Assembly (NCBI RefSeq): GCF_003334355.1
Contig: NZ_QOWP01000089.1
Strand: one strand, 5' to 3'
DNA from: Escherichia coli
GTDB lineage: Bacteria; Pseudomonadota; Gammaproteobacteria; Enterobacterales; Enterobacteriaceae
Length of the DNA: 1,309 bases
A model generated the notes under the pieces. That model was given only the letters and a program-made list of their open reading frames with translations. It had not been told where the DNA came from and ran no database searches. How positions within the stretch are numbered: position 1 is the stretch's first letter; each line of letters opens with the position of its first letter. The position numbers and the translations under genes were made by a program. Below are positions 1 through 1,309 of this stretch, one piece after another.

Positions 1-25
1 TGAACCGCCCCGGGTTTCCTGGAGA
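1..25. repeat. Terminal inverted repeat, IRR relative to transposase orientation
   Basis: Seen in sequence: positions 2-13 (GAACCGCCCCGG) are the exact reverse complement of 1298-1309, and positions 17-25 (TCCTGGAGA) are the exact reverse complement of 1286-1294. Positions 14-16 (GTT) mismatch the partner (AAA). Overall about 21 of 24 paired positions match. Position 1 (T) has no partner inside the window. Confidence 0.85.
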
Positions 26-42
26 GTGTTTTATCTGTGAAC

Positions 43-933
43 TCAGGCTGCCAGATCATCGTTTCCGATGGAAGCATAATAAGCTTTTTCTGCTTCTGCC
101 GGAGGAGTATGGCCCAGCCTTCCCAGCAATCGTCGATTGTTATACCAGTCCACCCACGTTAGTGTGGCCAGTTCCACTTCTGCACGGTTTTTCCAGCTCT
201 TACGGTGTATTACCTCCGCTTTGTAAAGACCATTGATGCTCTCAGCCATCGCGTTGTCATACGAGTCGCCTGTACTCCCTGTTGATGCCAGTAATCCGGC
301 TTCTTTTAGTCGCTCCGTATAGGCCAGTGACACATACTGAGAGCCTTTATCGCTGTGATGGATGGTGCCAGACGGACGACGGGCCCACAACGCCTGCTCC
401 AGCGCATCCAGCACGAATGTCGTTTCCATAGACGATGAGACCCGCCACCCCACGATGTATCCGGCAAACACATCAATGATAAACGCCACATAGACGAAGC
501 CCTGCCATGTGCTGACGTAAGTAAAATCAGCCACCCACAGCTGGTCAGGTCGTTCTGCCACGAACTGACGGTTTACGCGGTCGCCTGCGGCAACGGCTTT
601 CCGGCTGATGGTCGTACGGACCTTTTTACCCCGGAGAACACCGGCAAGTCCCATAACCGCCATGAGACGTGCCACTGTACATCTGGCCACCCTGATTCCT
701 TCCCGTAACAACTGACGCCAGACTTTACGCACACCGTACACCTGATGATTTTCATCGTATACGCGCTGTATCTCTCTCTTCAGCCAGTCGTCGTGCTGCG
801 CACGGGCACTGCGTTTATCCGGATGATGTCGCTGTTGCTGACAGTGGTAATACGTTGACGGGGCAATATGCAGTTCGCTGCATACCGGTCCGACCCCGTA
901 CTGCTCACGCAGCTTATCCAGCAGTGGCATCAT
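43..933 (-). CDS. IS3-family transposase OrfB (DDE / integrase-like catalytic domain; C-terminal part of OrfAB)
   Basis: Seen in sequence: 296-aa ORF, ATG at 933..931 (a second ATG follows at 930..928), TGA stop at 45..43. It lies in the -1 frame relative to orfA. Catalytic triad by motif inspection: D136 in LWVADFTYV (nt 526-528), D195 in HHSDKGSQY (nt 349-351), E231 in [15 protein letters not shown] (nt 241-243). D195 to E231 leaves 35 intervening residues, i.e. the DD(35)E arrangement of retroviral-integrase-like transposases. No internal stops or obvious truncation. Confidence 0.9.
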
Positions 934-941
934 TTTTTCCA
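928..941 (-). other. Putative programmed -1 ribosomal frameshift window (A6 slippery run) overlapping the orfA stop and orfB start (ATGA overlap)
   Basis: Seen in sequence: minus-strand 5'-TGG AAA AAA TGA TG-3', with the A6 run at + coordinates 933..938. In the orfA frame this reads W-K-K-stop; in the -1 frame it reads E-K-M-M and continues into OrfB. Established knowledge: IS3-family elements make the OrfAB transposase by -1 frameshifting on A-rich heptamers (A AAA AAG and similar) near the end of orfA. Inference: this A6 run is the shift site. The exact heptamer here (G AAA AAA, followed by a UGA stop) is not the canonical A AAA AAG. Confidence 0.6.
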
Positions 942-1256
942 GAGGCGGTCGAACTCCGCCTTCGCAAAATAAGCGGAAGCCTGGCGAAGGATATCGTTAC
1001 TGCGGCGCAGTTCACGATTTTCACGTTCCAGCTCTTTCAGACGCTGACGTTCAGCGCTGGTGAGCCCACCATCACCGCCCCCGGTATCCCGCTCATGCTG
1101 GCGAACCCAGACACGCAGAGTCTCCGGCGTACAGCCAATCTTTGGGGCAATGGAACAAATTGCCGCCCACTGTGAGTCATATTCATCCTGACTTTCCAGA
1201 ACCATACGAATCGCCCGCTGACGGACTTCGGGGGAAAAACGAGTATTTTTAGTCAT
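930..1256 (-). CDS. IS3-family transposase OrfA (DNA-binding / regulatory subunit; N-terminal part of the OrfAB fusion transposase)
   Basis: Seen in sequence: 108-aa ORF with ATG at 1256..1254 and TGA stop at 932..930, preceded by a Shine-Dalgarno-like AAGAGG 8 nt upstream. Protein features: a likely helix-turn-helix region around residues 28-52 ([25 protein letters not shown], about nt 1101..1175), a Gly-rich linker (DTGGGDGGL), and a heptad series L76-L83-L90-F97 (about nt 966..1031) consistent with the leucine zipper known for IS3-family OrfA proteins such as IS911 OrfA. Family assignment rests on recalled similarity. Confidence 0.9.
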
Positions 1257-1270: not shown

Positions 1271-1285
1271 TCTCAGGGAGTTTAG

Positions 1286-1309
1286 TCTCCAGGATTTCCG
1301 GGGCGGTTC
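1286..1309. repeat. Terminal inverted repeat, IRL (upstream of orfA)
   Basis: Seen in sequence: reverse-complement partner of positions 2-25 as described for the IRR. The window ends ...CGGGGCGGTTC; a terminal A to pair with T1 (giving the usual IS3-family TG...CA termini) would lie at position 1310, just outside the window. Confidence 0.85.

Follow-up and report, generated by a model that had tools for sequence, protein, structure and literature searches.

In the apical loop-internal loop (ALIL) pseudoknots the apical loop of one hairpin, stem-loop I, pairs with the internal loop of a second, stem-loop II. In Escherichia coli O157:H7, IS629/IS1203 is the most abundant insertion sequence, and it serves for typing and excision studies. 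IS1203 and IS3411 are both isoforms of IS629 [PMC3271280]. For IS3411, Atkins et al. (2016) [PMC5009743] cite Mazauric et al. (2008) for a pseudoknot which raises -1 frameshifting; they describe a stem 1 adjoining the shift site on its 3' side and a stem-loop 2 situated 44–104 nt further 3', and mention that the second component is reported to act partly in trans. According to Sharma et al. (2014) [PMC4066793] the stimulatory structures of the IS3 family begin 4–10 nt after the slippery motif, and IS3411 heads a list in which the structures are ordered by size (17 to 131 nt).

The stretch of DNA analyzed here (the window; 1,309 nt) is a near-complete copy of IS629/IS1203, a member of the IS3 family, lying on the minus strand. 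Megablast searches revealed copies with 100% identity among complete E. coli genomes, with a match in 4253 of 5426 genomes, and RefSeq/PGAP annotates the identical copies as [quoted passage not shown] The terminal inverted repeats (TGAACCGCCCCGG...CTGGAG), at 1..28 and 1283..1309, run to either edge of the window. On the right, where the sequence closes with ...GGCGGTTC, one more base would be needed to mirror the left end, and the window therefore appears to be without the last base of the element. Two overlapping genes are present, orfA (1256..930, minus strand) and orfB (933..43, minus strand), the latter in frame -1 relative to orfA. Since the -1 frame is open from about position 999 downward, several slip sites are possible in principle.

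An earlier note on this DNA, made from the sequence alone, had drawn attention to a nested stem-loop downstream of the presumed frameshift window and had wondered whether it acts as a stimulator of the IS3-family type. A scan with all of Rfam gave a single strong match, to RF01497 (ALIL pseudoknot), which spans minus-strand positions 975..859 and covers the model at full length (positions 1–117 of 117) with 121.5 bits (gathering score, 50; E = 9e-33). A plus-strand ALIL match (10.9 bits) and matches to sR2 and PhotoRC-I (E above 5) were treated as chance. In an identical IS1203 copy RefSeq carries an “AL1L pseudoknot” feature at locus 635–751, equivalent to 975..859 of the window. The nested structure is thus real, is located on the minus-strand mRNA as supposed, and forms part of a -1 stimulator. 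It is not a stand-alone hairpin: it constitutes stem-loop II of a two-hairpin pseudoknot, whose other hairpin (960..944) had been missed along with the pairing between the loops. We conclude with high confidence that the IS629/IS1203/IS3411 ALIL pseudoknot, the 3' stimulator of the programmed -1 frameshift which makes OrfAB, has its stem-loop II at 899..858 (minus strand). By analogy with the literature on the isoform IS3411, the pseudoknot would be expected to raise frameshifting in this element as well. The feature is already known, both as an Rfam family and as an annotation on RefSeq copies of this insertion sequence. Its anatomy is given in Table 1.

Table 1. Coordinates of the ALIL pseudoknot, its parts and the adjoining slip site in the window
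Feature	Position or pairs	Strand	Basis or remarks
Whole ALIL pseudoknot	859..975	-	Rfam RF01497; RefSeq feature; own model R1 (124.9 bits)
Probable slippery site U_UUU (frame-0 codons UAU UUU GCG)	966..969	-	Inferred from conservation and spacing
Spacer GCGAA, 5 nt, from slippery tetramer to stem-loop I	961..965	-	Sequence; within 4–10 nt rule
Stem-loop I, 17 nt: GGCGG 960..956, apical loop AGUUCGA 955..949, CCGCC 948..944	944..960	-	Rfam alignment
Apical-loop bases GUUCGA	949..954	-	G954-C888, U953-A889, U952-G890, C951-G891, G950-C892, A949-U893
Linker, 44 nt: A6 run 938..933, orfA stop UGA 932..930, orfB AUGs 933..931 and 930..928	900..943	-	Sequence and ORFs
Stem-loop II (nested stem-loop of the earlier note)	858..899	-	Fold z, pairing in relatives, compensatory changes
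Stem-loop II, outer stem	A899-U858, C898-G859, G897-C860, G896-C861, G895-C862, G894-C863	-	
Stem-loop II, further pairs	C887-G864, G886-U865	-	
Stem-loop II, apical stem	U884..G878 with C873..A867; loop CGAA 877..874	-	
Stem-loop II, 5'-side internal loop UCGGAC	888..893	-	Partner of stem-loop I apical loop

Both stems described in the earlier note are present. In the minus-strand reading ACGGGG (899..894) and CCCCGT (863..858) are perfect reverse complements of each other, and the inner hairpin AUGCAG-CGAA-CUGCAU occupies 883..868, to which U884-A867 adds a seventh pair. Folded by itself, the 44-nt segment 900..857 adopts exactly the nested structure at -21.1 kcal/mol, as against a mean of -12.5 kcal/mol for shuffled sequences (z = -3.67; none of 200 shuffles was as good). 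When RNA folding was carried out over windows of 44 to 401 nt, as had been proposed as a check, the inner hairpin held up throughout (pair probability about 1.0), while the outer stem fell to about 0.02 once positions 850..857 were added, because the nearest-neighbor model prefers a competing outer pairing for this single sequence, namely GUACG 901..897 with CGUAU 854..850 plus CGG 892..890 with CCG 861..859. This competitor (850..901, minus strand), which would tie up part of the internal loop, is rejected: it is not kept in relatives, some of its pairs being formed in only 6–34% of them, whereas the outer stem in Table 1 is 87–100% paired and shows compensatory changes. The palindrome ACCGGT, formerly placed at 885..890, in fact lies at 884..889, straddling the point where the internal loop meets the lower apical stem; we found no tie between it and the pseudoknot element. 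Far from being a passive spacer, the segment that separates the two stems is an internal loop which pairs with the loop of the upstream hairpin.

All of the testable defining features of the ALIL family are found at this locus. The structure is positioned at the orfA/orfB overlap of an IS3-family element which needs a -1 frameshift; stem-loop I (from 960) begins within 4–10 nt 3' of an in-frame slippery motif; stem-loop II, with its internal loop, lies within the 44–104 nt 3' of stem-loop I, the 44-nt linker being the lower bound of the published range; and the loops of the two hairpins, apical in stem-loop I and internal in stem-loop II, are complementary to each other. At 17 nt stem-loop I is likewise at the lower end of the published size range headed by IS3411. 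The loop-loop helix comprises 6 bp including one G-U pair, and among shuffled loop pairs a full 6-bp match turned up in only 0.6%. In contrast to an H-type pseudoknot, where a hairpin loop pairs with single-stranded RNA further 3', the stem-loop I loop here has its partner in the internal loop of another complete hairpin.

For comparative analysis relatives were gathered by OrfB protein similarity and not by RNA. A homology search with the OrfB protein returned near-identical E. coli copies only, and exposed inconsistent OrfA/OrfB junctions. Tblastn supplied eight plasmid relatives (47–86% identity) from the Gamma-, Alpha- and Betaproteobacteria and the Actinomycetota, and a collection with one genome per species a further 80 (59–67% identity). 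RF01497 matched all eight plasmid loci, seven of them above threshold. With a covariance model built from seven sequences and containing the two stem-loops only, the pseudoknot being left out, 88 of the 89 loci that code for an OrfB relative (identity as low as about 45–50%) were seen to carry the element, the exception being a truncated contig. Its carriers belong to the Alpha-, Beta- and Gammaproteobacteria and the Actinomycetota. The resulting alignment (A3) holds 75 distinct sequences, fitted to a model that includes the two stem-loops and not the pseudoknot; as controls the 3' partners were slid by 1–3 columns.

In these 75 distinct sequences the whole structure is 94.3% paired, compared with 29–44% for the slid controls; double-sided changes occur at eight pairs, and none of 500 shuffles reached any of five measures. 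Stem-loop II taken alone is 91.2% paired (34–47% in the slid controls), its score being reached by none of 500 shuffles, and it contains 62 compensatory (double-change) cells spread over six pairs. The loop-loop helix, absent from the model, is nonetheless 99.1% paired (slid controls, 17–35%). It contains compensatory changes at two positions, from G-C to A-U in one sequence and from C-G to U-A or A-U in three sequences including the window. The covariation which the earlier note had asked for among homologs is present in both stems and in the loop-loop helix. The pseudoknot covariation amounts to four sequences in three lineages only, stem-loop I and both loops being almost invariant. The helix of stem-loop I is 97.3% paired and nearly unchanging in the 75 relatives, a conservation which is confounded by the doubly coding stretch in which it lies.

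A further hairpin with a GNRA-type loop, GCUGC-GUGA-GCAGU (913..900), had been proposed nearby. It is present in the sequence, though its probability is below 0.16 in most windows. As a candidate part of the element it was rejected, since its pairing among relatives, 46.7%, does not exceed the 23–50% seen in slid controls.

The loop-loop helix was picked unprompted by the RNAalifold consensus, and in ordinary nested folding of individual relatives it has a median probability of 0.99. Nested thermodynamic folding is for this reason uninformative as a test of the stems in relatives, since the algorithm cannot hold both and takes the loop-loop helix over them. RNAalifold also lengthens this helix by CCG/CGG (A3 columns 45–47 with 98–100; window 948..946 with 898..896), drawing on the 3' arm in stem-loop I and on the 5' arm in stem-loop II. 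So extended, the long-range helix cannot coexist with either stem; it may be an alternative conformer.

One might suggest that the pairing is an incidental by-product of the conserved OrfB N-terminus, YGV(E/G)P(I/V)C...L.IAPS, with no role at the RNA level. The residues of the region are indeed highly conserved, the G, V, C and P columns reaching 97–100%. Stem-loop II is single-coding because it lies beyond the orfA stop, and its third-codon entropy is 0.75 bits, compared with 1.32 in the linker and 1.50 in the next 150 nt downstream. The internal-loop Val, Glu and Pro codons (model positions 82–90) show synonymous-codon entropies of only 0.11, 0.11 and 0.43 bits, whereas comparably conserved residues downstream have 1.1–2.2 bits; the four-fold degenerate Val and Pro codons are thus nearly frozen where equally conserved residues vary freely. 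Paired positions also change together, as the compensatory cells of stem-loop II attest. In the window itself the apical loop carries a C-to-U change with respect to the family which is matched by a G-to-A change in the internal loop. Both are non-synonymous (L-to-F in orfA, E-to-G in OrfB) and together they restore the loop-loop base pair; little other than selection on the RNA pair would readily account for this. We give the protein-only explanation hardly any credence.

Some relatives depart from the consensus. Two of them (among L075:847-975, L070:310-440 and L009:650-781) have 12–14 extra bases replacing, or inside, the apical loop of stem-loop I, which should change or abolish the loop-loop pairing. 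A Mycobacteroides element has 21 bases in place of six at the consensus apical end of stem-loop II. The AT-rich element of an Acinetobacter baumannii plasmid (L007:659-775) possesses a perfect stem-loop I, the internal loop UUGAAG and four of the six loop-loop pairs; its outer stem contains two mismatches and the score is still 78 bits. Its pseudoknot may be weakened.

The earlier note had put the frameshift window at the A6 run (938..933). The motif which is both conserved and correctly spaced is instead U_UUU at 969..966. An in-frame U_UUY five nucleotides before stem-loop I, sometimes extended to U_UUU_UUY, occurs in 74 of the 75 distinct relatives, and in 31 relatives it is the sole in-frame Z_ZZN motif of the overlap. 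An A_AAA run accompanies stem-loop II in only three of the 75, all of them enterobacterial. On slipping by one base tRNA-Phe would move from 968..966 to 969..967, where its pairing can again be perfect, and the codon then read in the -1 frame would be UGC (966..964). Among the tetramers that are shift-prone in E. coli U_UU.C ranks second, U_UU.U third and A_AA.A sixth, the weakest of the six active [PMC4066793]. In the relative from Sphingomonas formosensis (L046:859-975) orfA ends two codons past U_UUU (UUU GCG UAG), at a stop lying within the spacer, and its -1 frame runs on uninterrupted for 312 codons. Provided that this copy is active, no place other than the U-run is left for the slip. 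A conserved upstream Shine-Dalgarno (SD)-like stimulator of the U-run is absent, such an element being found in only 34 of 71 relatives. No explicit shift motif for IS3411 was found in the literature consulted on IS3411, IS1203 and IS629 frameshifting. From its re-pairing, spacing, conservation and tetramer rank, and from the published geometry of IS3411, U_UUU 969..966 is probably where the slip in this element occurs.

Were the nested structure a self-contained hairpin, it could be thought to promote slippage into the -1 frame on the A6 run, which immediately precedes the orfA stop. There an in-frame A_AAA is followed directly by UGA, the -1 frame is open, and A_AA.A is weakly shift-prone given a good stimulator [PMC4066793]. 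The distance of 33 nt, which had cast doubt upon stimulation, was measured correctly (A933 to A899). It is well beyond the 4–10 nt of IS3-family stimulators [PMC4066793] and so counts against a simple hairpin, yet a long distance is the defining geometry of the ALIL class; the puzzle stems from measuring the spacing from a run which is probably not where programmed slippage takes place. By the time a ribosome reaches the A-run, stem-loop I has been unwound and the pseudoknot is gone. The run is missing, moreover, from 72 of the 75 distinct relatives with an intact stem-loop II, and a stand-alone hairpin leaves unexplained both the synonymous constraint on the internal loop and its pairing with the upstream hairpin. 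We consider a self-contained hairpin acting at the A-run most improbable.

Somewhat less improbable, although still unlikely, is the use of two sites within the enterobacterial IS629/IS1203/IS3411 clade only, where U_UUU and the pseudoknot would be the main system and the A6 run with its stop an added low-level slip site, ribosomal or transcriptional, acting independently of stem-loop II. The three enterobacterial lineages sampled (including L002 and L003; model positions 38–43), with OrfB identities of 79–100%, all retain A6 followed by a stop (UGA, UAG or UAA). At each A of the run, however, a change would be non-synonymous in one or other of the overlapping frames, such that the conservation of the run needs no slippage function; the run is without a suitably spaced stimulator, and its tetramer is the lowest-ranked of the active six [PMC4066793]. 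If two sites were used there would be two OrfAB isoforms with different 11-residue junction peptides, possibly of different activity. At the same place an orfB-frame AUG overlaps the orfA stop (AUGA; window 928..933, minus strand; A3 model positions 43–46) in 63% of relatives. This stop/start overlap could allow separate synthesis of OrfB by translational coupling.

Public records of this transposase contain three different OrfA/OrfB junctions, and the annotation is inconsistent. In P0056 (442 members), the largest NCBI cluster named “IS1203 family transposase,” the frames are joined at UUUUG (..AYF/..) with G965 re-read, a junction that speaks for the U-run. The junction of P0008 (..AYF/..) is the exact product expected from a slip at U_UUU. 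Many database records, represented by P0047, are joined at the A-run (..LWKK/MMPLL..), a point in favor of slippage there. If the A-run is taken for the frameshift site, the OrfAB junction probably comes out wrong, and orfA-orfB fusion constructs joined at the wrong place would specify a transposase 11 residues off the likely natural one. The practical value of the present analysis is in correcting this junction; as a discovery it has little weight.

Based upon slippage at U_UUU with the pseudoknot as stimulator, the following sequence of events may be proposed. A ribosome translating orfA would bring the UUU (968..966) of U_UUU into the decoding site, at which point stem-loop I (960..944), a five-pair hairpin presumably weak alone, would stand at the mRNA entrance five bases downstream. 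Its GUUCGA apical loop would be paired with the UCGGAC internal loop (893..888), 44 nt further 3', and the six loop-loop pairs would lock it to the much more stable stem-loop II, giving a compact fold which resists unwinding by the ribosomal helicase. During the longer pause tRNA-Phe might re-pair one base back, whereupon the ribosome would read UGC GAA GGC... in the -1 frame, past the orfA stop (932..930), which is then out of frame, and into orfB to yield OrfAB.

The closest known system is the ALIL pseudoknot of the IS3411/IS51 group (RF01497), from which the window shows no structural difference. They agree in host element (an IS629 isoform), in position at the orfA/orfB overlap, in the 17-nt stem-loop I, the 44-nt linker and the stem-loop II with its 6-nt internal loop on the 5' side, and in the 6-bp loop-loop complementarity. 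Relative to the family consensus loops AGCUCGA/UCGAGC those of the window, AGUUCGA/UCGGAC, differ in that U-A has replaced C-G in one compensated pair and in that one U-G wobble is present. The IS3411 pseudoknot has been classed among the natural bulge/internal loop-kissing loop (bKL) motifs, with coaxial stacking predicted [Liu et al. 2021, PMC8457670], a likeness which is a structural classification only.

IS6110 of Mycobacterium tuberculosis [Gonzalo-Asensio et al. 2018, PMC5896891] resembles the window in the order of a slippery site, 5 nt, a hairpin with an AGCUCGA-type loop and a GUCGAG further 3', and the two share the architecture of an IS3-family subgroup [PMC5896891]. Unlike IS629, which has the tetramer U_UUU, IS6110 has the heptamer U_UUA_AAG and a longer linker. 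The H-type pseudoknot of IS3 and the three-way junction of IS911 likewise raise -1 frameshifting for OrfAB with a spacer of roughly 5 nt to the first stem. In IS3, however, a hairpin loop pairs with a single-stranded 3' segment, whereas the window has two complete hairpins joined through an apical and an internal loop, and IS911 combines a branched stem-loop with an upstream SD-like element, which is not conserved in the family of the window. Among plant viruses BYDV, RCNMV and PEMV RNA2 are described, in PMC5009743, as having the loop of one hairpin paired with that of a distant hairpin, which stimulates -1 frameshifting much as proposed here. There the internal loop is, according to the same text, on the hairpin proximal to the shift site and the apical loop up to about 4 kb away, while in the window the proximal hairpin gives the apical loop and its partner is 44 nt away; the two arrangements are not homologous.
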